Origin: Dehalococcoidia bacterium
Lineage (GTDB): Bacteria > Chloroflexota > Dehalococcoidia > WHTO01
DNA length: 64,000 nucleotides
Reading direction: 5' to 3'
Assembly: GCA_040902555.1 (NCBI GenBank)
Contig: JBBDXC010000013.1
Location: 211,832-275,831 of the forward strand
In this document: positions 12,149 to 63,774 of the stretch, piece by piece
Numbering within the stretch: position 1 is the first letter of the stretch
Layout of the letters: each line of letters starts with the position of its first letter
The notes under the pieces: model-generated
Told to the model about the DNA's origin: nothing
The model's input: only the letters and a program-made list of their open reading frames with translations
The model's database searches: none
Position numbers and translations under genes: made by a program

Positions 12149-13573
12149 CTAGGGCACTCCGACGCTCTGCCGCTCAAAAGCCCCTCGGTCGCAGCGGGCC
12201 CCGCCCGCGCCGTCACCGTTTTTTGGCCTGTCCTCGCCGCGTTGATCGCTGAGTGGACAGCCACCGGCGTTGTTGCCGGTATCTGTGGCCGGGCTTCCGG
12301 CGGGCAGCGCCCGGGTCTTCGTCGGGCCGCCGTGGTCCAGCAGTGCACCCAGCTGGGGGTTAACCCCTGCCACGTCCGTCCCCGAGTTCGTAAAGCAGGT
12401 ACCGTCGCTGTCCAGGTTGAAGCCCTGCGAGGTAACTGGGTCGCCCGCGCAGTCGCTGCCCACAAAGTTGCTGGCAACGATGCTGTTCTTGAGTCGCACG
12501 AATCCGCCGAGGGAGTCGCTATGAGTAATCGCACCCCATGCATCGAGCGTGGTGTTGTGGCTGATCGTGGTGTTCCTGATCGTCAACTTTCCGTTGTTAT
12601 CGATGCCGCCGCCGACGTGATTGGCCGAGCTATTCCCCGTGATGGTGCTGTTATTGATCAGCATTACTGAGCCCGCATAGTTGCCGATCCCTCCGCCATA
12701 GTCGGGAGATGTCGTGTTCGAGCTGATAGTGCTTCGCGTGATCGTCGTGTTGCCGCCGTTCGCGTTGATGCCACCGCCGCAACAGCTCGAGTTGCCGCTA
12801 ATTGTCGACGTCGTTACTGACAACGTGCCGTTGTTGAAAATGCCGCCGCCATCATCGTCGACTTCGTTACCGCTGATCGTCGAGCCGGAAAGGCTCACCT
12901 CGCCCTGTCTGTTGTAGATGCCTCCACCTTCGCCATTAACACCCCCAGTTGCTGAGTTGTTCTTGATGCTGCTGCCGCTGATCGTCAGTTCAGCCCCGAT
13001 GTCGTTGAGGATGCCGCCGCCGTCACCGCTGGTAGGATCCGCCGGGCTTCCCCTGATCTCGCTGTCCTTTATCACCACGTTTATAAGGGTCAGTCGGCAA
13101 CGGTTATGGATGGCGCCGCCGTCCGCGTTTCTGATCTTTCCGTTCATCAGTGTCAGGTTTTGGATAGTAACGTCGATGCACGATTCCGACACGAAAATGT
13201 CGAAGAGTCTGTCTACCTGCTGGGCATCGATGAACGTCGTGTTCTTTCCGGCGCCGGCGATCGTCACGTCACCGTCGTAAAGGTCGAGGTCGCCGCTCTC
13301 GGCATTGTCCTCATCCCGGTTGTCGGTCGCGGGATTCGTACCCAGCAGGTAGGTCCCTTCACCCAGGATGATCGTGTCGAAGTTGGACTGGGCGTTGGCC
13401 TGGCGCACTGCCTCGCGCAGAGTGCAATGGGCCGCCGTGCAGGCCGCTGGCACCGGGTCCTGGAAGTGCGTGACCGTCAGCTCCGCGGCGTCCGCCTGGG
13501 GGACACCGTCGCCCAGCGTCCCAAGAAGCGCCAACCCGGCTATGGCGATGACCAACTTTCGTAGCATGCGCAA
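12149..13573 (-). CDS. secreted CSLREA-domain / right-handed beta-helix repeat protein
   Basis: Signal peptide. CTLREAVRQAN matches the CSLREA motif. Gly/Asn/Ser/Thr-rich beta-helix repeats (GGGIxN..G.L.I..STISGN) follow. Confidence 0.65.
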   Translation of the reverse strand: MRMLRKLVIAIAGLALLGTLGDGVPQADAAELTVTHFQDPVPAACTAAHCTLREAVRQANAQSNFDTIILGEGTYLLGTNPATDNRDEDNAESGDLDLYDGDVTIAGAGKNTTFIDAQQVDRLFDIFVSESCIDVTIQNLTLMNGKIRNADGGAIHNRCRLTLINVVIKDSEIRGSPADPTSGDGGGILNDIGAELTISGSSIKNNSATGGVNGEGGGIYNRQGEVSLSGSTISGNEVDDDGGGIFNNGTLSVTTSTISGNSSCCGGGINANGGNTTITRSTISSNTTSPDYGGGIGNYAGSVMLINNSTITGNSSANHVGGGIDNNGKLTIRNTTISHNTTLDAWGAITHSDSLGGFVRLKNSIVASNFVGSDCAGDPVTSQGFNLDSDGTCFTNSGTDVAGVNPQLGALLDHGGPTKTRALPAGSPATDTGNNAGGCPLSDQRGEDRPKNGDGAGGARCDRGAFERQSVGVP

Positions 13574-28657: not shown

Positions 28658-29260
28658 TCAGGCCGGCACGGGAACCTCGGCGTACGGCGGGGCCGGGTAG
28701 TACTCGATGTACTTCTGCACCAGCCGCGCCTTCTCTGGGCCCCACAGCCGGCCCACCAGGTGCAGTGCCATGTCGATGCCGGCTGAGACGCCGGCGGCGG
28801 TGATCACGTCGCCCTCGTCCACCCAGCGCTCCTCAACCACCTCGACCCCGTCCTTCTCGCCCAGGTGCGGCCGCATGCCCCACCACGTCGTCGCCTTCTT
28901 GCCCTTCAACAGCCCCGCCCGCTCCAGCACCAGGGCGCCGGTGCAGACTGACGTCGAGATCTCGGCGCTCTTGGCGACTTCGCCGATATAGGCCATGAAC
29001 GCGGGGTTGTCGACCTCGGTGCGCGTGCCCATGCCGCCCGGGACGATGAAGATATCGGGCTTCGGCGCGTCCGCGAAGCTGTAGTCCGCCAGCACGCGTA
29101 GCCCCTTCGCACAGGTAACCGTGCCGCCGTGTTCGGACACGGTGTAGCAACGGGCAGCGTCCTCGTCGACGTGCCGCATGCTGGTCAGGACCTCCCAGGG
29201 ACCGACGAAGTCGAGCTCCTCGGCGTCATTGAACAGGATGAAGGCGATGTTCTTAGTCAT
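28658..29260 (-). CDS. DJ-1/PfpI family protein
   Basis: Nucleophile-elbow Cys in VCTGALVLERAGLL and DJ-1 fold length (200 aa). Confidence 0.8.
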   Translation of the reverse strand: MTKNIAFILFNDAEELDFVGPWEVLTSMRHVDEDAARCYTVSEHGGTVTCAKGLRVLADYSFADAPKPDIFIVPGGMGTRTEVDNPAFMAYIGEVAKSAEISTSVCTGALVLERAGLLKGKKATTWWGMRPHLGEKDGVEVVEERWVDEGDVITAAGVSAGIDMALHLVGRLWGPEKARLVQKYIEYYPAPPYAEVPVPA

Positions 29261-29311
29261 GTGTCCAAGTCTATGCTGACGCCCGCCACCTCGCCTTCCG
29301 AAAGCGGTTAC

Positions 29312-29950
29312 TCAGTTCTCCGGGTAACCCGCCGCCCTCCGTTCGAGGATGCGTTGCGTCACTGAGCGGAAGACGTCGTAGGATTGCGCGCCAACCAGGG
29401 CAAAACGCTCGTCGAAGATGAACGTCGGCGTACCGCTGATACCGGCTGAGTGGGCCGTGTGTGTCGAAGCCCTCACACGCTCGCGGTACGCCCCAGAAGC
29501 GAGCGTCTCCGCCAGGCCCTCACCCAGTCCGCCCTCTCTTCCGATCCGCACGAGCAGATCCGGGTCGCCGATGTTCTCACCGTTCGTGAAATAGGCCTCG
29601 AACAGGCGATGGTGCAGGCGGTTGAACGGCTCGGGGCCGGCCTCGCGGGCGAACTCAGCGGCCTCAAGGGAAGGCAATGACCGCGCGATCAACTGCGGCG
29701 GCTTGATGATCAGCCCTTCCTTCTCGCCCTCCTCGCGGAGCATGCCCATGTAGTCGTCGCCACGGCGGCGGCCGCCAAACAGGCGCTCCGGCGTGATGCC
29801 CTCGGGCGGGATCTCCGGGTGGAGCTCGAATGGCTTCCAATCGATGTCGAGATCGAACTCCCGGGCGAGCCTCTCCACACGGGCGAGGCCTACATAGCAC
29901 CAGGGTCAGATGTAGTCGGAGTAGATGGTCACCGGCAGTGCATCGGTCAT
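29312..29950 (-). CDS. DsbA/FrnE-like thiol:disulfide oxidoreductase with in-frame TGA at the first active-site Cys codon (candidate selenoprotein; alternatively a pseudogene)
   Basis: Minus-strand translation from ATG at 29950 reads MTDALPVTIYSDYI-[TGA at 29908..29906]-PWCYVGLARVERLAREFDLDIDW... and continues in the same frame into the DsbA-like body. The stop sits exactly where the first Cys of the CPWC thioredoxin motif belongs. Confidence 0.6.
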
Positions 29951-30036
29951 GTCCGCAGCCTCCGACGCGGCGCCGCAGCCGTCAATCCCTACTGCACCGA
30001 GCAATAACTACCAAAACACGGTCTTCCCCCGCCAAA

Positions 30037-30095
30037 CCCTCTCCCTGGCAAGGAGAGGGCAGGGTGAGGTCGTGGGGCGGCGGGGTGTGGCGTCC
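30037..30095. repeat. palindromic intergenic repeat family, long variant
   Basis: ccctctccctggcaaggagagggcagggtgaggtcgtggggcggcggggtgtggcgtcc in a divergent promoter region. Confidence 0.75.
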
Positions 30096-30189
30096 GTAAC
30101 CGAGCCGGGTTGACTGTTACCCATCCAGGGGCGGGAACAATTGCGCAGCCTGGGGCGTTAGGGCATTAACCTGCCTGAGGGGGTTGACT

Positions 30190-30474
30190 ATGCGCATGCT
30201 TCTCGCCCTGCCCGTCCTTGCCCTGACGATCGTGGCCGGAGCCCTGCTTACGAGCTCCGCACAAGCAGCCGCCCCTCCCGACATCACCCTTAAGGCCTTC
30301 CTCAAGTGCACCGAAGAACGCCTCATCGTGCGCGTCGTCGTCGTCAACGAAGGCCGCGAGACCGCGCAATTCCTCGAGGTCTATCTCCAGGTCGAGGAGA
30401 ATTCCGGCGACAACATCAACAAGGGCATCGGATTCCAACTACTTCCATATCAGTACGGTGGACATTGCCGGTAA
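30190..30474 (+). CDS. small secreted protein (signal peptide); possibly the N-terminal part of a frameshifted larger gene
   Basis: MRMLLALPVLALTIVAGALLTSSAQAAAP signal peptide. ORF ends 17 nt into the next ORF, which is in a different frame. Confidence 0.5.
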   Translation: MRMLLALPVLALTIVAGALLTSSAQAAAPPDITLKAFLKCTEERLIVRVVVVNEGRETAQFLEVYLQVEENSGDNINKGIGFQLLPYQYGGHCR

Positions 30475-31189
30475 CTGGAGCGACCCGGTACACGCCGGCC
30501 CCTTCTTCATAGACATCAACGCTCCCGGCGCCGCAAGGATCATCGGACCCGCGGCGACCAAGGAATTCCAGCTCTCCACCCAGTTCCGCCTCAAGTGGGC
30601 GGCCAGCGACCCGAACAGTGGCCTCAAGGACTACGACGTGCGCTACCGCATGGCCAGCCTTGGCGGCGATTTCGGCACCTTCAGGAACTGGAAGTTGGCG
30701 ACGACGCTCGTAGATGCTCGTTGGGTGGGCCTGAAAGGCTACACCTACTGCTTCTCGACGCGGGCTCGCGACAACGTCCTCAACGTTTCGGCGTGGAGTG
30801 CGGAGAAGTGTACCGCGATCCCCTTCGATGACCGCGGCCTCACGGCCACGGGCAGTTGGGCGCGGGAGACCGCGTCCGGCTACTATCTCGGCAGCTATTC
30901 GCTCTCGTCAACCACCAACAACACGTTGACCAAGACCGGCATCATGGCGGAGAAGCTGCTGCTGATCGCCACCAAGTGCCCCGGCTGCGGTACAGTGCGC
31001 GTGTTCTGGAATGGCGTCGCGGTCATCGACATCGACCTGGAAAACGCGACAAAGCAACGCCGCCAGTTCATCCTCATCGACGACTTCGGCGTAATGGAGA
31101 CCGGCTCTATCGAGATCCGCATCATCTCCAGCGGTAAACCCGTCTACATCGACGGCCTCGCCGTCGGCAAGACGGCCCCGCTGCCCTAG
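30458..31189 (+). CDS. hypothetical beta-rich (Fn3-like) protein lacking its own signal peptide; possible downstream part of a frameshifted secreted protein
   Basis: GTG start. Beta-sandwich-like sequence (DYDVRYRMAS...GYTYCFSTRARD). Its frame stays protein-like about 40 nt upstream of the annotated start (NYFHISTVDIAGNWSDP). Confidence 0.5.
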   Translation: MDIAGNWSDPVHAGPFFIDINAPGAARIIGPAATKEFQLSTQFRLKWAASDPNSGLKDYDVRYRMASLGGDFGTFRNWKLATTLVDARWVGLKGYTYCFSTRARDNVLNVSAWSAEKCTAIPFDDRGLTATGSWARETASGYYLGSYSLSSTTNNTLTKTGIMAEKLLLIATKCPGCGTVRVFWNGVAVIDIDLENATKQRRQFILIDDFGVMETGSIEIRIISSGKPVYIDGLAVGKTAPLP

Positions 31190-36414: not shown

Positions 36415-37245
36415 ATGCGGGTCATGGGACGGGAGACCACCGCCGAGAAGCGCGAAGTCGAGCTATTCGACTCGGTCTACGGGCGGGCCGTCAGCCGCTT
36501 CCTGCAGCGCGTCGACATCCTGACCGCCGAGCGCTGGCGCGCCGGCAAAGACGAGGACGCTCGACCCATCCGCCACCTGGGCCGCCTTCTCATCGCCCAG
36601 GAAACAGGCGTGGGCCTGATTCGGGCCAGCGTCGCCGGAGATCCATTCGGTCCCCTGACGAAGCAGCCGGTGTCGGTCCCAGACGTGGCAAAAAGCGAAC
36701 CTTCCGACCTGCTCGAAGCCCTGCGCGCCGCCGTGGCGGCTCAGCTGGAGCTCGTTCGCGGACTCGAGGACGACGGCCTCCTGCGCAGGCCCGCCGGCGT
36801 CCCCGGCTGGCAGCGCCCGGGTACCCTGCGCCACCTCCTCGACCACCTCTACATCCAGTTCCCACTGCACTACCAGCAGATCCGCGCTGTCTCTGGCAAA
36901 CCCCGCCTGCCACATTGGTTCGAGGATTGGATGCCCGAGAGCTCGAACGACTTCTACAACAGGCTCTTCCGCCTGCTGCCTCTGCTCTACACGCCCGTCG
37001 AGGGCAGCGATGGTAAGCCGTCGAGCGTTTGTATCGAGCTGACGCAGCCCGGTGGTGGCCGCTGGCGCCTGGCCGCCGAGGGCACCCGCGCAACGTCGGA
37101 GCTCGACTGCGAGGCGGGCGCCGGCGCGACGATTAAGTCCCGACCGCTCAAGTTCCTCGACTTCCTGACTGGCCAGGGCAAGGTCTCAAGTAGCGGGCGT
37201 TCCGACCTTGCCCGCAACTTTCACAAGGCCTTCCCGCTCATCTGA
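36415..37245 (+). CDS. hypothetical protein (DinB/MDMPI-N-like helical domain plus C-terminal domain)
   Basis: Protein-like, motif-poor. His-rich helix LRHLLDHLYIQFPLHY. Confidence 0.4.
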   Translation: MRVMGRETTAEKREVELFDSVYGRAVSRFLQRVDILTAERWRAGKDEDARPIRHLGRLLIAQETGVGLIRASVAGDPFGPLTKQPVSVPDVAKSEPSDLLEALRAAVAAQLELVRGLEDDGLLRRPAGVPGWQRPGTLRHLLDHLYIQFPLHYQQIRAVSGKPRLPHWFEDWMPESSNDFYNRLFRLLPLLYTPVEGSDGKPSSVCIELTQPGGGRWRLAAEGTRATSELDCEAGAGATIKSRPLKFLDFLTGQGKVSSSGRSDLARNFHKAFPLI

Positions 37246-39351: not shown

Positions 39352-39810
39352 ATGGGCCGCCCTAACAAGCACCCGACGTTTGAGACACGCCACTTATTTC
39401 GGAGCGCCAAAGGTATACCCAAGCCGACCAAGACCGAGGTGCTTCCAATGCGGCAGAGCTGCCCGCGGTCCCCTCCCGGACCTACATCACCGCGACCGCC
39501 ACTGACACGGCCAACAACACCTCCGAGTTTTCGTCGCTGCATAGCCGTCAACGTCGTTTGTCGGGGACGCTCGGCCCACATCTTCGGCGGCGCGGCCGCG
39601 GACGTTCTCAATGGGACCCCCCAAGAGGACGTTATCGGCGGCGGCGGCGGCGACGACACCCTGCGCGGCCGTGGCGGCAACGACCTTCTCTGTGGAGGGG
39701 GTGGCTCGGACACCCTCGATGGCGGAGCCGGCAACACCGACGTTTGCGACGGCGGCCCCGCGGCCGATACGTTCCTCGCCAGCTGCGAGCAGCGTTTCGG
39801 CGAACCATAG
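39352..39810 (+). pseudogene. 3' remnant of a secreted calcium-binding-repeat protein (HYR-like segment plus hemolysin-type GGxGxD repeats), frameshifted
   Basis: ORF frame encodes GGGGDDTLRGRGGNDLLCGGGGSDTLDGGAGNTD (RTX-type nonapeptide repeats). The adjacent +2 frame just upstream encodes AELPAVPSRTYITATATDTANNTSEFSS (HYR-like). No signal peptide or N-terminal domain. Confidence 0.4.
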
Positions 39811-46964: not shown

Positions 46965-47282
46965 TTGGCCTTCAAGATCGAGTTGGCCCCCTGCATAAAC
47001 TGCGGCTGGTGCCGGCGCTCCTGCCCGACGACCTGCATCGAATACTTCGCCACCGGCCGCCGCACGCACGTCATCACGCCGCGCGACTGCATCGACTGCG
47101 GCATCTGCGCCAACGTCTGCCCCGTCGACTGCATCCACCCCGACCCCACCTATTCCCACGAACCAATCGAGCTCGAAGCCGCGCGGGAAAAAGCGCGGGG
47201 CTGGGCCAAGAACCGCCGCCAGCGCAAGCTGCACATGCTCGACGCGGTCGAGACGCGGGTAGAGGCCGGACGCGATGCCTGA
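46965..47282 (+). CDS. 2[4Fe-4S] ferredoxin
   Basis: Two CxxCxxCxxxCP clusters (CINCGWCRRSCP, CIDCGICANVCP). 105 aa. TTG start. Confidence 0.8.
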   Translation: MAFKIELAPCINCGWCRRSCPTTCIEYFATGRRTHVITPRDCIDCGICANVCPVDCIHPDPTYSHEPIELEAAREKARGWAKNRRQRKLHMLDAVETRVEAGRDA

Positions 47283-47895
47283 GCTGCACGTCGACCAGCG
47301 CCGCATCGGCGGCGCCTTCTCGGTGGACGAGAACGCACGGCGCATCGTCCACTTCCGCTACGCCGAGATAAAATGCATGGAGGCGCTTTCCGGCTGGCCG
47401 GCCACGATGCCCACGATCAAGGTCAAGCTGGCCATGGGCGAGCAGGCTTACCAGGACGCCCTGCACGCCGACGCCCTGGGCCGCCGTCTGCCGGAGCTGC
47501 GCGATTACGAGAAGGCCCAGATCGAGCGTCCGCCGATGCTCCGCGGCTCAGAGAAGGCCCTGCCGGCCAACGCCGAGTTCGAGCACTTCATCGAAGAACT
47601 GCACGACGAAGAGGACGAGCTGCTGCGTATCGTCGGCCTCTACCGCGTGCTGAAGACCCACCTGGCCGTCTACTACCGCCACCACATGGCCGTGACCGAC
47701 CAGATCTCCGACGCGCCGACCGTGCGGACGCTGAAGTTCATCCTGGTCGACGAGGAAGAGCACCTGAAGTTCGGCCAAGCCATCTACGAAGAGCTGGCCG
47801 ACACCGTCGAGAAGCGCCGGCGCGCCCTCGACTGGCAGCGCCATCTGGAAGAGCTGCTGGTCCAGGCCGGCGGCATCCACGGCCTCCACGCTTAG
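47275..47895 (+). CDS. ferritin-like/helical protein, function unknown; 8-nt overlap with the ferredoxin gene
   Basis: Helical, Glu/His-rich (VDEEEHLKFGQ, YYRHHMA). Translationally coupled to the ferredoxin. Confidence 0.45.
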   Translation: MPELHVDQRRIGGAFSVDENARRIVHFRYAEIKCMEALSGWPATMPTIKVKLAMGEQAYQDALHADALGRRLPELRDYEKAQIERPPMLRGSEKALPANAEFEHFIEELHDEEDELLRIVGLYRVLKTHLAVYYRHHMAVTDQISDAPTVRTLKFILVDEEEHLKFGQAIYEELADTVEKRRRALDWQRHLEELLVQAGGIHGLHA

Positions 47896-53872: not shown

Positions 53873-54451
53873 ATGAGTGACCCAGCCCAGCTCAGCCAGG
53901 TGGCGGAGATGGCCCCCCACGACGAGGCCGACCACGCCGAGCACATCCACCTTCCCGGGCCGAGCTTCTGGCCCATCAGCCTCGCCGTCGGCATCATCCT
54001 CATCGCCATGGGCTTCGTGACCCACCTCGCCGTAGCCAGCGCCGGCGGCCTGATAATGGTCGGGGCGATGGCCGGCTGGATCGCCGAGACGCGCAAGCAG
54101 GCCCGCGAGCTAGAGGGCCGCGAGGGACCTCCGCCCTACGTCCACACCGTGCTCTTCCAGTACATGGCCCCTGACGAGGGCCAGATCAACCGCAGCAACG
54201 GCCTGCGCTCCCAGATCGACCAGCACCTGCTGGCGATCAAGCAGATGCCGGGCTTCGTCGACAGCCGCATCCTGCGCACACACAACTACGAAGGCCCCGT
54301 CCAGACCATCATCCAGACGACCTGGCGCGACGCCGAGAGGCTGGCCGAGTACGAGGAAAGCGGCGCCACCATCGAGTCGGTGATCAAGGCCCATAAGGGT
54401 GTGGTTGTCCCCGGCAGCGTCCAGGTCTACGACCTGCAGGACGTCAGCTAG
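53873..54451 (+). CDS. fusion of cytochrome c oxidase subunit-IV-like membrane segment and ABM (antibiotic-biosynthesis-monooxygenase-like) domain
   Basis: N-terminal HIHLPGPSFWPISLAVGIILIAMGF resembles prokaryotic aa3-oxidase subunit IV; second TM follows. C-terminal 100 aa has a ferredoxin-like ABM/Dabb pattern. Position directly after ctaAB. Confidence 0.45.
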   Translation: MSDPAQLSQVAEMAPHDEADHAEHIHLPGPSFWPISLAVGIILIAMGFVTHLAVASAGGLIMVGAMAGWIAETRKQARELEGREGPPPYVHTVLFQYMAPDEGQINRSNGLRSQIDQHLLAIKQMPGFVDSRILRTHNYEGPVQTIIQTTWRDAERLAEYEESGATIESVIKAHKGVVVPGSVQVYDLQDVS

Positions 54452-55808: not shown

Positions 55809-56630
55809 TCAGTCGAAGACGTCACATTCGGACTCGTCGATCAGCCCCTGCGCCGCCGAGTCTTCGCACTGCTGCCGCAGGGTATCGGGGTCGCAGGAGT
55901 CGGCCGCCTGCTCCTCCGTGAAGCCGCTGTCGATGAACCCCTGCTCGCAGGCGTCACGGTCGAACCCGCCGCTTAGGCCACCACCGCCACCGCCCCCGTC
56001 CGAACCGCCAATGGCGTCACCCACCTCGCTCGCCTGGGCGTCGAGGAACCAGACGCCATTGACGTAGGGGTAGTCGCCGAGGTTGTCGCCGGTGGACACC
56101 TCGGAGACGGCGCCCATGATCACGGCGAAGGCCGCGAAGCCGGCGAGGTTCGCCATCGTGATCTGAGAGCTCGTGGTGTCTGTCGCCGCCGCTATCGCGT
56201 ACTGGCTGAGGACAAACGCCCCAACCATTCCCAGGATGGCGAAAGGCCAATCGAGGAAGGTGATGAAGATGAAGAAGCTGACTATCGCGGGCACATAGGC
56301 AAAGCCCAGCGTGGCGATCAGCTGCTGGATGTTCGACCGCCCCTTGTAGACGGAGTTAACCAGCAGATGAGCCACCCCCGGCCAGGCCATCCAGACTATC
56401 GTCTGGACGATGCTGCCGATAATCACGCTCCTCAACAGCAGGTCACCAGTCTCCGGATAGTCCTCGAACTCCGCGTACAGGTAAGTCCCGATGCCGATGA
56501 CGAGGTTGGTGACAAACACCACGACCAGCCCGGCGATGAGGCCGGACGGGTCGATCTTTATCTCGTCAAAGGCCGTCGTGTCGAGCCGGATGACCCGGCC
56601 CAGCCAGTTCAAAACTCGGGATGGGTCCAT
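55809..56630 (-). CDS. Yip1-domain membrane protein with Gly-rich and Cys/Asp/Glu-rich C-terminal tail
   Basis: Five TM helices homologous to the upstream paralog, plus a 70-aa tail (GGSDGGGGGGG...DACEQGFIDSGFTEEQAADSCDPDTLRQQCEDSAAQGLIDESECDVFD). Confidence 0.65.
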   Translation of the reverse strand: MDPSRVLNWLGRVIRLDTTAFDEIKIDPSGLIAGLVVVFVTNLVIGIGTYLYAEFEDYPETGDLLLRSVIIGSIVQTIVWMAWPGVAHLLVNSVYKGRSNIQQLIATLGFAYVPAIVSFFIFITFLDWPFAILGMVGAFVLSQYAIAAATDTTSSQITMANLAGFAAFAVIMGAVSEVSTGDNLGDYPYVNGVWFLDAQASEVGDAIGGSDGGGGGGGLSGGFDRDACEQGFIDSGFTEEQAADSCDPDTLRQQCEDSAAQGLIDESECDVFD

Positions 56631-56668
56631 TCAGCAACCTCCCTTGAGTGCAGGTCGAAGCTCAAGAA

Positions 56669-57286
56669 TCACGTGAGTAGTCCGCCGAGCCAGTCGAGGA
56701 ACCAGATGCCGCTGGCGAAGGGGTAGTCGCCCAGCCCATCGTCGCCCAGGATCTCCACCGCGATGACGCTCATCAGCACCGAGAACGCGGCCAGCCCGGC
56801 GAGGTTGGCCAGCGTTATCTGCACACTGCTGGCGTTGCTCGATGAGGCGATGGCGTACTGTGTGAGGACGAACGCAGCGACCATGCCCAGGAGGGCGAAC
56901 GGTGTGTCGAGCGGGGTGATGAAGATCAGCGCCATAATCGCTGCCGGTACGTAGGCAAAGCCCATCGTGGCGATGAGCTGCTGCACGTCGGCAGTTGCCT
57001 TATAGAACGAGTTGAGGAGCAGATAGGTGACCCCCGGCCAGGCCACCCAGAGTACGGTCTGGACGATAGTGCCGAGAATGACGGTTTTGATCAGCAGGTC
57101 ACCCTTCTCCGGCAGGTCCTCGACCGTGCCGTAGATGTAGGTGCCGATGCCGATGACGAGGTTGGTCAGAACCACGGCGATGAGTCCGCCGATCATGCCG
57201 GACGGATCGAGCTTGATCTCGTCGAAAGCTGTGCTGTCGAGGCGGATCACGCGGCCTAGCCAGTTGACTGTCCTTGCGAAGTCCAA
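56669..57286 (-). CDS. Yip1-domain membrane protein
   Basis: About 70% identical to the downstream paralog over the TM core (NWLGRVIRLD.TAFDEIK.DPSG...). Confidence 0.65.
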   Translation of the reverse strand: MDFARTVNWLGRVIRLDSTAFDEIKLDPSGMIGGLIAVVLTNLVIGIGTYIYGTVEDLPEKGDLLIKTVILGTIVQTVLWVAWPGVTYLLLNSFYKATADVQQLIATMGFAYVPAAIMALIFITPLDTPFALLGMVAAFVLTQYAIASSSNASSVQITLANLAGLAAFSVLMSVIAVEILGDDGLGDYPFASGIWFLDWLGGLLT

Positions 57287-59283: not shown

Positions 59284-60009
59284 ATGAAGCTCCAGTTCCT
59301 GGGCTCGGGCAACGCCTTTGCCCCCGGCGGCCGCGGCTGGAGCTGCTTCTTGCTGAATGATCGCTACCTGTTCGACTGCGGCCCGCAGGCGCTCTCCTCG
59401 CTGAAGCGGCTCGCCATCGACCCGGCCCGCGTCGAAGCCATTTTCATAACCCACTTCCACGCCGACCACTGGCTCGGCGCTCCTTTCCTCTTCCTCGAAT
59501 ACGACTACATGACGCGCCGCGACAAGGTGTTGGAGGTCGTCGGCCCGCCGGGGATCGAAGAAAAGTTCGAGGATATGTACGAGCGTGGGTACTTCAAGAA
59601 CCGCAAACAGAAGCGCTTCAAGGTCAGCTACACCGAAGCCGCGCGGAGCAAGGCTGGGGAGGTTGCCGGCCTACCCTATGTCTCGCTGCCGATGAACCAC
59701 GCCAGGGAGAAGCTCGAAGCCTTCGGCTATCGGGTGACCATCGAGGGCCAGCTCCTGGCCTATACCGGCGACACGGCGTGGTGTGACGAGCTGTTGCAGC
59801 TGGGCGAGGGCGCCGACGCGATGGTCATCGACTGCTCCTATCCCGGTGACGGCGACGCCGGCACCCACATGGGCTTCAACGACGCCAAACGCCTGCGCTC
59901 GCTCATCGACCCGAAGACGACGCTGATCCTGACCCACCTCCAAGAGACGCCCGCGGAGTCCCTGCCATCCACCATCGTGGCCGAGGACTTCGCCACCTAC
60001 GAGATCTGA
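59284..60009 (+). CDS. MBL-fold metallo-hydrolase
   Basis: HxHxDH motif (THFHADHW) and the further MBL metal-ligand residues conserved. 241 aa. Confidence 0.75.
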   Translation: MKLQFLGSGNAFAPGGRGWSCFLLNDRYLFDCGPQALSSLKRLAIDPARVEAIFITHFHADHWLGAPFLFLEYDYMTRRDKVLEVVGPPGIEEKFEDMYERGYFKNRKQKRFKVSYTEAARSKAGEVAGLPYVSLPMNHAREKLEAFGYRVTIEGQLLAYTGDTAWCDELLQLGEGADAMVIDCSYPGDGDAGTHMGFNDAKRLRSLIDPKTTLILTHLQETPAESLPSTIVAEDFATYEI

Positions 60010-60650
60010 TGCGCGCCCTTGTCTCGGCCGGCGCCCCCGTCACCCAATCCCCCCTAGTTGAGGAAGCGCTGCGCAAGGCGGACTTGCTGATTGCCGCCAA
60101 TGGCGGCGGCGCGCGCCTGTTGCAGCTCGGCGTGACGCCCAACCTGCTGGTCGGGGACCTGGACTCGCTCACGCCCGGAACGCGAGATGCGCTCGTCGCC
60201 GGCGGCACCGAGTTCATCGAATATCCGCCCGCCAAAGACAAGACCGACACCCACCTCGCGCTCGAGGTAGCCTTCGAGCGCGGCGCCACGCAGGTCGACA
60301 TGCTCGGCCTCTTCGGCGGCGACAGGCTGGACCACGCCGTGGCTAACAGCCTTCTCCTGGCCCACGCCGACTTCCGCGAGCGCGACATCCGGATCATCGA
60401 CGGCGCCAACGAGGCGCGGCTCTGCCGCGGCTGGACTGTCGTCCAGGGTAAAGCCGGCGATTACCTGACCCTCATTCCTCTCACGCCCGAGGTAACCGGC
60501 ATCCGCACGAAGGGGCTGCGCTACGAGGTCCCCGAAGGCCGGCTAATGTTTGGCGACTCCCTCGGCGTGAGCAACGAGCTGATCGGCTTCGAGGCCGCCG
60601 TAAGTGCGGCGCAGGGCACCCTCCTCGTCCTCCACCACCACAGGTCCTAA
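60009..60650 (+). CDS. thiN: thiamine pyrophosphokinase
   Basis: TPK catalytic motif GDLDSL and C-terminal thiamin-binding domain. 213 aa. Confidence 0.85.
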   Translation: MRALVSAGAPVTQSPLVEEALRKADLLIAANGGGARLLQLGVTPNLLVGDLDSLTPGTRDALVAGGTEFIEYPPAKDKTDTHLALEVAFERGATQVDMLGLFGGDRLDHAVANSLLLAHADFRERDIRIIDGANEARLCRGWTVVQGKAGDYLTLIPLTPEVTGIRTKGLRYEVPEGRLMFGDSLGVSNELIGFEAAVSAAQGTLLVLHHHRS

Positions 60651-60711: not shown

Positions 60712-60830
60712 CAATCCGCGGCGTCGGAAGACTACCGCGGCAACACCCGCAAACGGGGGCAGGTGGGAATTCGAGGCAGTCGGCCACGACCATCCGCTAT
60801 CCTGCAACCGTAACAACTGAATACGGAGAT

Positions 60831-60926
60831 CCGCTGGGGGAGTCCACTCAAGGGTGGACTGAGAGGCTGCTCGTGAGGGCACGACCCCTGGAACCTGACC
60901 TTGCTGATACGAGCGTAGGGAAGCGG
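60831..60926 (+). promoter_or_regulatory. TPP (thiamine pyrophosphate) riboswitch aptamer
   Basis: Conserved THI-box elements in order: CUGAGA, ACCC, GAACCUGA, GCUGAUAC, GCGUAGGGA, with closing P1 helix CCGC...GCGG. Confidence 0.85.
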
Positions 60927-60944
60927 GCTTAAGGGACACCAGTA

Positions 60945-61045: not shown

Positions 61046-62086
61046 ATGAAGCTCATTTGCGCCTTACTCGTCACGGCTCTTGTTTTCCTTGCCGCCTGCG
61101 GTGACGACGACCACAGCGGCGGCGGCACGCTGCGCCTGCTCACCCACGATTCCTTCGCGGTCGATGAGGACGTTATCACCGAGTTCGAGCAGGGGCACGA
61201 CATCTCGGTCGAAATCATCCGCGGCGGCGACGCCGGCGCCGTCGTCAACTCCGCCATCCTCAGCAAGGGCAACCCGGTCGCCGACGTCCTCTTCGGGGTC
61301 GACAACACCTTTTTGGGGCGCGCCCTCGACGAGGAGATCTTCGTCGCCTATGAATCGCCGGAGCTCGACAACGTGGATGACCGCTTTGAGTTTTCCGAGT
61401 TCGTGACACCCATCGACTACGGCTACGTCAACCTAAACTATGACATCGCTGCCCTGGAAGCTGAGGGCCTCGCGCCGCCGGCGACGCTCGAGGAATTAAC
61501 CGAGCCAGCCTGGGAGGGTCTGGTGGTGGTCGAGAACCCCGCCACATCATCGCCCGGCCTCGCCTTCCTCGCTGCCACCGTCGCCTACTTCGGTGAGGGC
61601 GACGACTACGACTACCTGGACTTCTGGGCCGACATGCGCGCCAACGGCGTCGAGGTCAGCGACAGTTGGACTGACGCGTACTACACCCGCTTCACCCTCT
61701 ATGGCGGCGAGCAGCCGGTCGTCGTCAGCTACACCACCAGCCCCGCCTGCGAGCTGATCTTCGCCGAGGAGCCCCTCGACGAGCCCCCCATCGGCAACAT
61801 CACGCCGCCGCAGGGCTCGTTCGAGCAGATCGAGTTCGCTGGAATACTCGCCGGTGCCGACAACGAGGACGCGGCGCGCGACTTCATCGACTTCATGCTG
61901 GGGGAGCGCTTCCAGGTGGCCTTCCCCGACGACATGTGCGTCTTCCCGGTACGCGACGGCGCCGCCCTCCCTGAGGCCTTCTCCTTCGCCGAGCCGCCGG
62001 CTGAGCCTGCCGACCTGGATTACGAGACACTAGCGGCAAAGCGCGACGATTGGATCGAGGCATGGACCGACGTGGTACTGCGCTGA
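61046..62086 (+). CDS. thiB: thiamine ABC transporter substrate-binding lipoprotein
   Basis: Lipoprotein signal (LVFLAACGDD), periplasmic-binding-protein fold. Downstream of the TPP riboswitch and followed by a two-domain permease. Confidence 0.8.
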   Translation: MKLICALLVTALVFLAACGDDDHSGGGTLRLLTHDSFAVDEDVITEFEQGHDISVEIIRGGDAGAVVNSAILSKGNPVADVLFGVDNTFLGRALDEEIFVAYESPELDNVDDRFEFSEFVTPIDYGYVNLNYDIAALEAEGLAPPATLEELTEPAWEGLVVVENPATSSPGLAFLAATVAYFGEGDDYDYLDFWADMRANGVEVSDSWTDAYYTRFTLYGGEQPVVVSYTTSPACELIFAEEPLDEPPIGNITPPQGSFEQIEFAGILAGADNEDAARDFIDFMLGERFQVAFPDDMCVFPVRDGAALPEAFSFAEPPAEPADLDYETLAAKRDDWIEAWTDVVLR

Positions 62087-63774
62087 CCAGCGCCGGACGA
62101 TCCGCGCGCTGGCCACGCCTTTTGCCCTACGGCTGGCTGGCCTTCGGCGGCGCCCTAACCTTCCTCGCAATCTTCTTCGCCTACCCTCTGGTCGAAATCC
62201 TCAGGCGCAGCCTTTTCGACGGCTGGTCCCCGGACCTCGGCGCGTTCTCCGAAGTCCTGGGCGACGACTATTTCCGGGGGCGCATCTTCTTCAGCTTTTG
62301 GCTGGCGCTGGTATCGACTGTCGCCACGGTGGCCCTGGGCTTGCCCTCGGCCTACGTCTTCGCCCACTACAGCTTCCCCGGGAAAACCCTCCTGAGGTCG
62401 GTCAGCACCGTGCCGTTCGTCATGCCGGCGATCGTCGTGGCCTTCGGCTTCATCGCCCTTTTCGGGCCGGACGGACTGGTCAACGACGGCTTACGGTGGC
62501 TGCTGGGGCGCGACGACGCGGCGCTGGACATGATCGGCACATTCGAGGTCATCGTCCTCGCGCACGTCTTTTACAACTACACGATCGTGATGCGCGTGGT
62601 CTCGGGTTTCTGGGCCTCGCTCGACCCCCGGCTGGCCGAGGCCTCGCACGTGCTGGGCGCCGGGCGCTGGCAGACGCTGAGACATGTGACGGTCCCGCTC
62701 GTAGCGCCCGCGGTGGCCGCTGCCGCGCTGCTGGTCTTCATCTTCTCGTTCACCTCCTTCGGCGTGGTATTGATTCTCGGCAGCCGCGACCACGCGACAC
62801 TGGAAGTTGAGATCTATCGTCAAACGGCCCAGATCTTCGATCTACGCGTCGCCGGCGCTCTGGCCATGATCCAGGTCGTCGTCACATTCGGCTTCATGCT
62901 CCTCTACACACGGCTGCAGGAGCGGTCAGCCGCACGGATCGACTTCCGTCAGCAGCTTCGCGAGCGCGCGCCTGGGAGCGTTCTGGCGCGTTGCGCTGTG
63001 GTCCTGAATGCCCTGGCGGTGCTGCTGGTCGTCCTCTCCCCGCTGCTCGCCCTGGTCCACAGCGCGCTGCGCGTCGACGGCCACTATTCGACGGCGGCCT
63101 TCGAGAACCTCTTCAGCGGAGAGTCCGCGACGCTGCGCCTCGTCGCACCGGAGACGGCTATCAGAAACTCGCTGGCCTTCGCGGGGCTGACCGTCCTACT
63201 GGCGGTTCCGCTCGGGACGGCAATCGCCTATCGGCTGGCGGCGCAGGCGCGCTATAGCTTTGTCCTCGACGCGGTGCTGATGTTGCCGCTGGCGGTGTCC
63301 GCGGTAACCCTCGGCTTCGGCTTCCTGATCGCCCTCGACGAGCCGCCGCTCGACCTGCGCGCCAGCTGGCTGCTGCTCGTCATCGCCCACAGCCTGATCG
63401 CCTACCCGTTCGTCGTGCGCAGTCTGTTGTCCGTGCTCCGTGGCATCAACCCGAGGCTGCGGGAGGCTGCCGCGGTCCTTGGCGCGGGCCGGCTGCGCAC
63501 CTTTACCGAGGTCGACCTGCCGATCATCTGGCGGGCCCTGGTGGTTGGGGCCGTCTTCGCCTTCGCCGTCTCGCTCGGCGAGTTTGGCGCGACATTGCTG
63601 CTGGCACGGCCCGAGTACACGACAATGCCGGTGGCGATCTTCCGCGCGCTCGGCCAACCCGGCCCGCGCGCCTTGAGCGAGGCGTTGGCCATGGCGTCGC
63701 TGTTGATGCTTGTGGCCGGCGCGGGCTTCATTCTGATCGAGCGGTTGCGTTACCGCGGCAGCAGCGGGTTCTAG
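62050..63774 (+). CDS. thiP: thiamine/iron(III)-type ABC transporter permease (two fused transmembrane domains)
   Basis: 574 aa with 12 TM helices and two EAA-like permease loops. Start may be the second ATG at 62062. Confidence 0.8.
   Translation: MDRGMDRRGTALTSAGRSARWPRLLPYGWLAFGGALTFLAIFFAYPLVEILRRSLFDGWSPDLGAFSEVLGDDYFRGRIFFSFWLALVSTVATVALGLPSAYVFAHYSFPGKTLLRSVSTVPFVMPAIVVAFGFIALFGPDGLVNDGLRWLLGRDDAALDMIGTFEVIVLAHVFYNYTIVMRVVSGFWASLDPRLAEASHVLGAGRWQTLRHVTVPLVAPAVAAAALLVFIFSFTSFGVVLILGSRDHATLEVEIYRQTAQIFDLRVAGALAMIQVVVTFGFMLLYTRLQERSAARIDFRQQLRERAPGSVLARCAVVLNALAVLLVVLSPLLALVHSALRVDGHYSTAAFENLFSGESATLRLVAPETAIRNSLAFAGLTVLLAVPLGTAIAYRLAAQARYSFVLDAVLMLPLAVSAVTLGFGFLIALDEPPLDLRASWLLLVIAHSLIAYPFVVRSLLSVLRGINPRLREAAAVLGAGRLRTFTEVDLPIIWRALVVGAVFAFAVSLGEFGATLLLARPEYTTMPVAIFRALGQPGPRALSEALAMASLLMLVAGAGFILIERLRYRGSSGF

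Follow-up and report, generated by a model that had tools for sequence, protein, structure and literature searches.

The minus-strand gene at positions 29312..29950 of the window, by which we mean the whole 64-kb stretch of Dehalococcoidia DNA analysed here, very probably encodes a 212-residue cytoplasmic thiol-disulfide oxidoreductase of the DsbA/FrnE type with the active site U15-P-W-C18, in which an in-frame TGA serves as a functional selenocysteine (Sec) codon. This reading is drawn from comparison of the gene sequence with those of its homologues. The gene leaves the general understanding of selenoproteins unchanged, and adds a Dehalococcoidia member to a DsbA/FrnE-like selenoprotein family known since 2005. 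In that year, DsbA-like proteins (COG2761, UxxC) were described as a new selenoprotein family of the Sargasso Sea metagenome, with nine sequences and predicted SECIS elements (PMC1088965), in agreement with the statement in the initial annotation that such proteins occur in selenoproteome surveys. Members were later found in Anaeromyxobacter, Desulfovibrio, and Desulfotomaculum (PMC1794560), and a 2026 review contains the entry "DsbA-like protein form 1, PF01323, UxxC" (PMC13188914); the family is recorded from Deltaproteobacteria, Clostridia, and Asgard archaea (PMC1088965, PMC1794560, PMC13188914).

Gene structure and reading frame

The minus-strand frame opens with an ATG (29948..29950), reads MTDALPVTIYSDYI-[TGA 29908..29906]-PWCYVGLARVERL..., and is closed by a TGA stop at 29314..29312, giving 212 codons from Met1 through Sec15 to Asn212 plus the stop. 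The TGA at 29906..29908 is the sole in-frame interruption. It lies 14 codons 3′ of the start codon and takes the place of the N-terminal nucleophilic Cys of a CxxC motif (position U15), where homologues have TGA or TGC/TGT. The resolving Cys of the U-P-W-C motif, Cys18 (TGC at 29897..29899, minus strand), is the only Cys in the translated protein, and the position three residues after the U15 site holds a Cys in every one of the 149 distinct sequences. A Shine-Dalgarno-like GGAGG occurs at 29959..29963 on the same strand, 9–13 nt upstream of the ATG with an 8-nt spacer (the 20 nt upstream read CCGCGTCGGAGGCTGCGGAC). The initial annotation had reported an in-frame TGA at the first Cys of a CxxC motif in the minus-strand ORF 29950->29312, and its coordinates, frame, and motif are all correct in the sequence and its translation.

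A scan for promoters and terminators returned zero sites. Fifty-one nucleotides downstream, on the same strand, lies a gene of the DJ-1/PfpI family (28658–29260), and the two may be co-transcribed. The same arrangement was seen in locus L176, and a GNAT acetyltransferase gene occupies the position in other members of the clade; the gene neighbourhood offers no functional lead. On the other side, a pair of ORFs at 30184–31189 (plus strand), divergent from the selenoprotein gene, had no match in Pfam (E ≤1e−5) or NCBIfam.

Conservation of the in-frame TGA

When the homologous codon was read in all 177 loci fetched, 70 of them (65 distinct sequences) had TGA, 62 had TGC, and 28 had TGT. The two Cys codons together accounted for 90 loci (84 distinct), and neither TAA nor TAG occurred at this position. 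Alignment with Sec and Cys homologues, a check suggested alongside the initial annotation, thus pairs the TGA with Cys in 84 distinct sequences and with Cys22 of the Deinococcus radiodurans protein FrnE. A separate scan of GTDB, with one genome per species, yielded 80 loci from the closest species representatives, and among these the Sec form is commoner than the Cys form (TGA in 51, TGC/TGT in 28, and one unreadable), mostly in Chloroflexota and Dormibacterota metagenome-assembled genomes (MAGs). The TGA is present in 10 of 10 distinct members of the clade to which the window sequence belongs (66–99% amino acid identity), and also in homologues sharing only 37–51% identity. A metagenome scan with a back-translated pattern containing DYICPWCY matched only distant, mostly Cys forms, because the pattern itself included Cys at the active site. 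TGA-containing DsbA-like genes were also encountered in bins named "Mycobacterium leprae", "Candidatus Nitrosopolaris" (archaeal), and "Hyphomicrobiales" (loci L071, L047, and L045); these labels look like mis-binning or, failing that, horizontal transfer of the genes.

The residues flanking the codon are kept in the Sec and Cys classes alike, with SDY[IVL] on the 5′ side and P[WF]C[YF] on the 3′ side. Within the 10 sequences of the clade, the residues 5′ of the TGA are fixed, and they are written with four different codons for Thr, three for Ser, and two for Ile; this synonymous variation at fixed residues indicates that the segment upstream of the TGA is translated in frame. An ATG or GTG stands 14–15 codons 5′ of the TGA in all 10 clade members. 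A separate Logan assembly, made from run SRR27977660, matches positions 26403–30060 of the window (3658 bp) at 100% identity, including the TGA; this contig probably comes from the same sample and therefore counts against an assembly error only. Elsewhere in the window, TGA is an ordinary stop codon: the 50 Pfam-supported ORFs end in TGA 21 times, in TAG 20 times, and in TAA 9 times, and TGA also ends the selenoprotein gene, so that recoding would be local and context-dependent.

A rough neighbor-joining tree of 150 sequences combined with Fitch parsimony required at least 14 switches between Sec and Cys, and dynamic switching of this kind has been described for Sec/Cys families (PMC1794560). 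In the same rough tree, the clade of the window sequence is a monophyletic Sec group, and its sister is a Cys form (locus L013, protein P0002).

Truncated database entries

The nearest database entries (P0001 and P0003–P0010, 64–99% identical) are only 188–189 amino acids long and begin with V/M-ERLA..., just after the TGA, and more distant entries of 181–189 amino acids likewise start immediately downstream of it. In every case in which the surrounding DNA was fetched, the frame extends upstream through ...SDYI-TGA-PWCY.... The start chosen by the automated gene callers, which produces the 188/189-amino-acid entries, is a GTG at 29876..29878 (minus strand), and this triplet is the GUG within the apical loop of the hairpin described below. 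Every public gene call examined for the clade starts at this loop GUG, by which the active site is lost and the selenoprotein is hidden. The clade-wide truncation is a systematic mis-annotation, and its correction is the practical outcome of this analysis.

A SECIS-like hairpin downstream of the TGA

The 23 nt at 29890..29868 (minus strand), the core of the candidate bacterial SECIS (bSECIS), fold into GGCCUC-G-CC-CGUGU-GG-A-GAGGCU with a minimum free energy (MFE) of −12.0 kcal/mol. The hairpin consists of 6 bp, a 1×1 internal loop, and a further 2 bp capped by an apical loop of 5 nt (CGUGU), the second and third nucleotides of which are GU; the UGA is 24 nt from the apical loop. The initial annotation had proposed a stem GGCCUC/GAGGCU beginning at the 16th nucleotide after the UGA and enclosing an 11-nt loop. 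The stem is present as proposed (29890..29885 paired with 29873..29868), and the loop is smaller, being reduced to 5 nt by two more C–G pairs.

The published bSECIS consensus has an apical loop of 3–9 nt, a stem of 4–16 bp, a spacing of 16–37 nt, an MFE of −7.5 kcal/mol or lower, and a G at loop position 1 or 2, after which G or U is typical (PMC13188914). On every one of these points the hairpin agrees with the consensus (loop CGUGU, 8 bp, 24 nt, and −12.0 kcal/mol). The model is passed by all 65 distinct Sec forms but also by 49 of 84 (58%) Cys homologues, and compliance is weak evidence here because the model is permissive in a GC-rich context. When the MFE of the 39 nt following the PW codons was compared with that of synonymous-codon shuffles, the window clade gave z values of approximately 0, indicating that stability alone does not discriminate in a context of 65% GC; the stem in this clade is neither longer nor more stable than those of the shuffled sequences (p = 0.2–0.5). 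The earlier description of the stem as compatible with a SECIS, but not diagnostic of one, was therefore apt: it does no better than synonymous shuffles, and more than half of the Cys homologues fit the model.

The diagnostic evidence is instead evolutionary. Among the 10 sequences of the clade, only locus L001 departs from the 24 nt GGCCTCGCCCGTGTGGAGAGGCTC, a C-to-G change at a stem position being accompanied there by a G-to-C change at its partner; the hairpin is thus 100% paired in all 10 sequences, with one compensatory pair (C–G to G–C). Among identical residues, synonymous differences amount to 0.026 in the eight hairpin codons compared with 0.475 in the rest of the gene, and those eight codons show the lowest synonymous divergence of 200 sliding windows along the gene in the ten-sequence clade. 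The codons fixed in the hairpin include the Arg codons CGT and AGG, which are rare in the genome (7% and 9% of Arg codons). The Cys-form sister L013/P0002, which is 64% identical, encodes a nearly identical peptide, GLARVEKL, with different codons and lacks the hairpin. Judged from these substitution patterns, the hairpin is under constraint at the RNA level.

Across the whole family, the mean uninterrupted stem is 7.1 bp in the Sec forms and 5.4 bp in the Cys forms (Mann–Whitney p of approximately 1e−15, with kinship ignored), and Sec forms, but not Cys forms, exceed their synonymous shuffles. The Sec-form stems begin 16–18 nt from the U of the UGA, and their sequences and registers vary by subclade (for example, UCGGCCU/GGGCCGA, GCUGCCC/GGGUAGC, and UCGACUC/GAGUCGA). 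In the window subclade, the stem starts 16 nt after the UGA and contains the 1×1 internal loop, whereas most other Sec forms have stems of 7–8 bp starting 14 nt after the UGA. Because the registers differ between subclades, a count of fixed columns separated Sec from Cys forms only in part, and a single family-wide consensus structure was rejected; an extended lower helix that includes the UGA was also discarded, being poorly conserved (74% paired). An Rfam scan of the hairpin region returned only a chance snoRNA match (E = 0.47), and the element belongs to no Rfam family. Like the bacterial SECIS of Escherichia coli fdhF, the hairpin is a stem-loop located in the coding region immediately after the UGA, but it shares no primary-sequence similarity with the fdhF element, and SelB would presumably bind it. 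A Cys (TGC) form from a Chloroflexi MAG (WY5.bin150; L031, from 1351 onward) still has an 8-bp hairpin at the SECIS position and may be a recent Sec-to-Cys conversion.

Protein fold and probable activity

With Cys substituted for Sec, residues 7–196 of the protein matched the Pfam family DSBA (PF01323) with an E-value of 2.5e−33 and a score of 115.9 bits (cut-off 25.6), and the closest solved structure by sequence was FrnE of D. radiodurans (PDB 5cnw, E = 1e−18), in line with the DsbA/FrnE assignment made in the initial annotation. In the alignment, the TGA falls on Cys22 of the FrnE motif 22-CPWC-25. The GTP loop aligns with the cis-Pro loop of FrnE (GVP); the Thr174-Pro175 codons, at 29426..29431 on the minus strand, correspond to the cis-Pro loop of the thioredoxin fold, which faces the active site, and T174, P175, and T176 are invariant. 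For the full-length Cys homologue P0002, AlphaFold gave a model with a pLDDT of 95.6, in which the CxxC motif follows strand 1 and stands where helix 1 begins. The best PDB matches of this model were FrnE (5co3, TM 0.89) and SCO1869, and the more distant ones were Kappa-GST/HCCA isomerases and classical DsbAs.

FrnE (DR_0659; PDB 5cnw and 5co3) is assigned to the subfamily cd03024 as a cytoplasmic reductase/isomerase, and the window protein shares with it the CP(W/F)C-type site, the cis-Pro loop, and the lack of a signal peptide. By inspection, no signal peptide was found: strand β1 starts as early as residue 5, and the N-terminus lacks a hydrophobic segment. The window protein differs from FrnE in having Sec, on our reading, in place of Cys22 and in ending at residue 212 (...RRAAGYPEN) without the C-terminal CxxxxC tail, so that Cys18 is its sole Cys. 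In FrnE this tail regenerates the active site, and tail-less homologues, which the window protein resembles, are known in S. roseofulvus and D. maricopensis (PMC8945050). Periplasmic E. coli DsbA (CPHC), the partner of DsbB, is similar in its thioredoxin fold with a helical insertion and in the position of its CxxC at the start of helix α1, but the window protein has a CPWC-type motif, and the structural match is weaker (TM 0.55–0.6 for the P0002 model), much below that with FrnE. Pfam scans found no DsbB or VKOR in the window. An identity as a periplasmic DsbA of oxidative folding was rejected on the grounds that there is no signal peptide, that the window contains no DsbB, and that the structure is nearer to FrnE. 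By analogy with FrnE, the activity is most likely that of a cytoplasmic disulfide reductase/isomerase with Sec as the nucleophile and Cys18 as the resolving residue. A second thiol-redox gene in the window encodes a DCC1-like thiol-disulfide oxidoreductase (PF04134; 17181–17642, plus strand) and has no in-frame TGA.

In the mechanism that we propose, translation would start at the ATG at 29950, and the hairpin at 29890..29868, acting as a SECIS inside the coding sequence, would recruit SelB and Sec-tRNA(Sec) at the UGA (29908..29906), leading to insertion of Sec in place of termination. The ribosome would proceed to the genuine TGA stop at 29314..29312. Sec15, predicted to sit where helix α1 starts and to face the cis-Pro loop (Thr174-Pro175), would attack substrate disulfides or other oxidised thiols in a manner similar to FrnE. 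The resulting mixed selenenylsulfide would be resolved by Cys18, and the Se–S bond would be re-reduced by a cellular reductant.

Alternative explanations for the TGA

The initial annotation had named a nonsense mutation or a TGC-to-TGA error as the alternative, and neither accounts for 70 loci with TGA, the lack of any TAA or TAG, and an identical Logan copy. A pseudogene, in which a TGC-to-TGA nonsense mutation inactivated a DsbA/FrnE gene, would need a single transversion; Cys forms are common in the family and include the sister L013, and no Sec machinery was seen in the 64-kb window. Against this, the same TGA recurs in 65 distinct sequences spread over several phyla, in which TAA, TAG, and frameshifts are absent; the frame is intact, with the peptide kept on both sides of the TGA; and the synonymous sites of the hairpin are frozen, which is unexpected for a decaying gene. 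We consider inactivation very improbable. An error of sequencing or assembly concealing a true TGC is conceivable for a window derived from a MAG, yet the Logan assembly of SRR27977660 is identical (albeit probably from the same sample), and nine other clade members, assembled independently (JGI, ENA, Logan, and GTDB), have the same TGA, so that this explanation is the least credible of those considered. It is also highly unlikely, to about the same degree as inactivation, that the real gene is the short annotated ORF of 188 amino acids from GTG 29878 to 29312, with the 14 codons and the TGA as an untranslated leader. The public calls for the clade are all 188–189 amino acids long and GTG is a legitimate start codon, but the product would lack strand β1 and the entire redox motif of the thioredoxin fold; the ATG is preceded by GGAGG, and the GTG by nothing resembling a Shine-Dalgarno sequence; the residues LT[IV][YF]SDYI encoded 5′ of the TGA are retained through synonymous codon changes; and the GTG supplies the GU that is conserved in the apical loop of the SECIS. 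Taken together, the conserved TGA, the in-frame flanks, and the start codons effectively rule out inactivation, sequencing error, and the short ORF alike.

A further explanation accepts that the UGA is recoded, but with a residue other than Sec. A few bacteria have been described in which tRNAs resembling tRNA-Sec insert Cys at UGA in a SelB-dependent manner, and near-cognate read-through stimulated by the hairpin (with Trp, Cys, or Arg) is another route. The inserted residue is not identifiable from sequence alone, and the 64-kb window shows no Sec machinery. Several points nevertheless argue for Sec: the position is that of the nucleophilic redox Cys, a classic Sec site; the family is catalogued as a selenoprotein family (PMC1088965, PMC1794560, PMC13188914); large selenoproteomes document the use of Sec in Dehalococcoidia (PMC13326102); and the 14 or more changes between TGA and TGC/TGT match the pattern reported for Sec/Cys families (PMC1794560). 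Recoding to another residue is thus improbable, if somewhat less so than the three explanations above. The reading of the gene as a UxxC selenoprotein, already put forward in the initial annotation, is upheld by a TGA conserved in the clade and down to approximately 37% identity, by conserved flanks, and by a constrained hairpin.

Comparison with known members of the family and origin of the Sec form

The gene shares with the DsbA-like form 1 family the PF01323 domain, the UxxC motif with Sec for the first Cys, and a bSECIS-type hairpin with a small G-containing loop, and Cys homologues are widespread in that family, as they are here. The window member comes from a Dehalococcoidia MAG; published representatives of the family include AACY01178397 and NIP15863.1. 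Because the sister of the window subclade is a Cys form, this subclade may have gained Sec independently of the other Sec clades and may have built its SECIS from the shared peptide-coding stretch in another register, a course of events that we regard as more probable than recoding to a residue other than Sec. If such a gain occurred, the family would provide a natural series for studying the origin of a SECIS inside a coding sequence. The Sec/Cys switching and the differing hairpin registers over one conserved peptide are possible material for studies of SECIS evolution.

Sec machinery and other features of the window

Pfam scans of approximately 60 ORFs found no selA, selB, or selD in the 64-kb window, tRNA scans found no tRNA-Sec in the window or in 58 related loci, and no Sec machinery was present in the approximately 2.7 kb past the left end of the window or near the homologues. 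The window contained no other convincing selenoprotein candidate with an in-frame TGA. Dehalococcoidia MAGs with 46–49 predicted selenoproteins are on record (PMC13326102), and the use of Sec is thereby established in Dehalococcoidia as a class.

Several features unrelated to the selenoprotein gene were noted. Five regions with coding-like GC3 had no Pfam match (E ≤1e−5): 12149–13573 (minus), 30184–31189 (plus; the divergent ORF pair mentioned above), 36415–37245 (plus), 47275–47895 (plus), and 53873–54451 (plus). A PIN-domain ORF is located at 26965–27378 (minus), a small ORF with RTX calcium-binding repeats at 39352–39810 (plus), and two tandem genes for Yip1-domain membrane proteins at 55809–57286 (minus). 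ARAGORN called a 92-nt "tRNA-Ala(ggc)" at 63451–63542 (plus), which lies wholly within an ABC permease ORF (62050–63774) and is most likely a false positive. That permease ORF belongs to an ABC transporter (61046–63774, a solute-binding protein and a fused permease), which, together with a thiamin pyrophosphokinase gene (60009–60650), flanks a TPP riboswitch at 60826–60938 (plus; Rfam RF00059, 63.4 bits), and the transporter presumably serves thiamine uptake.
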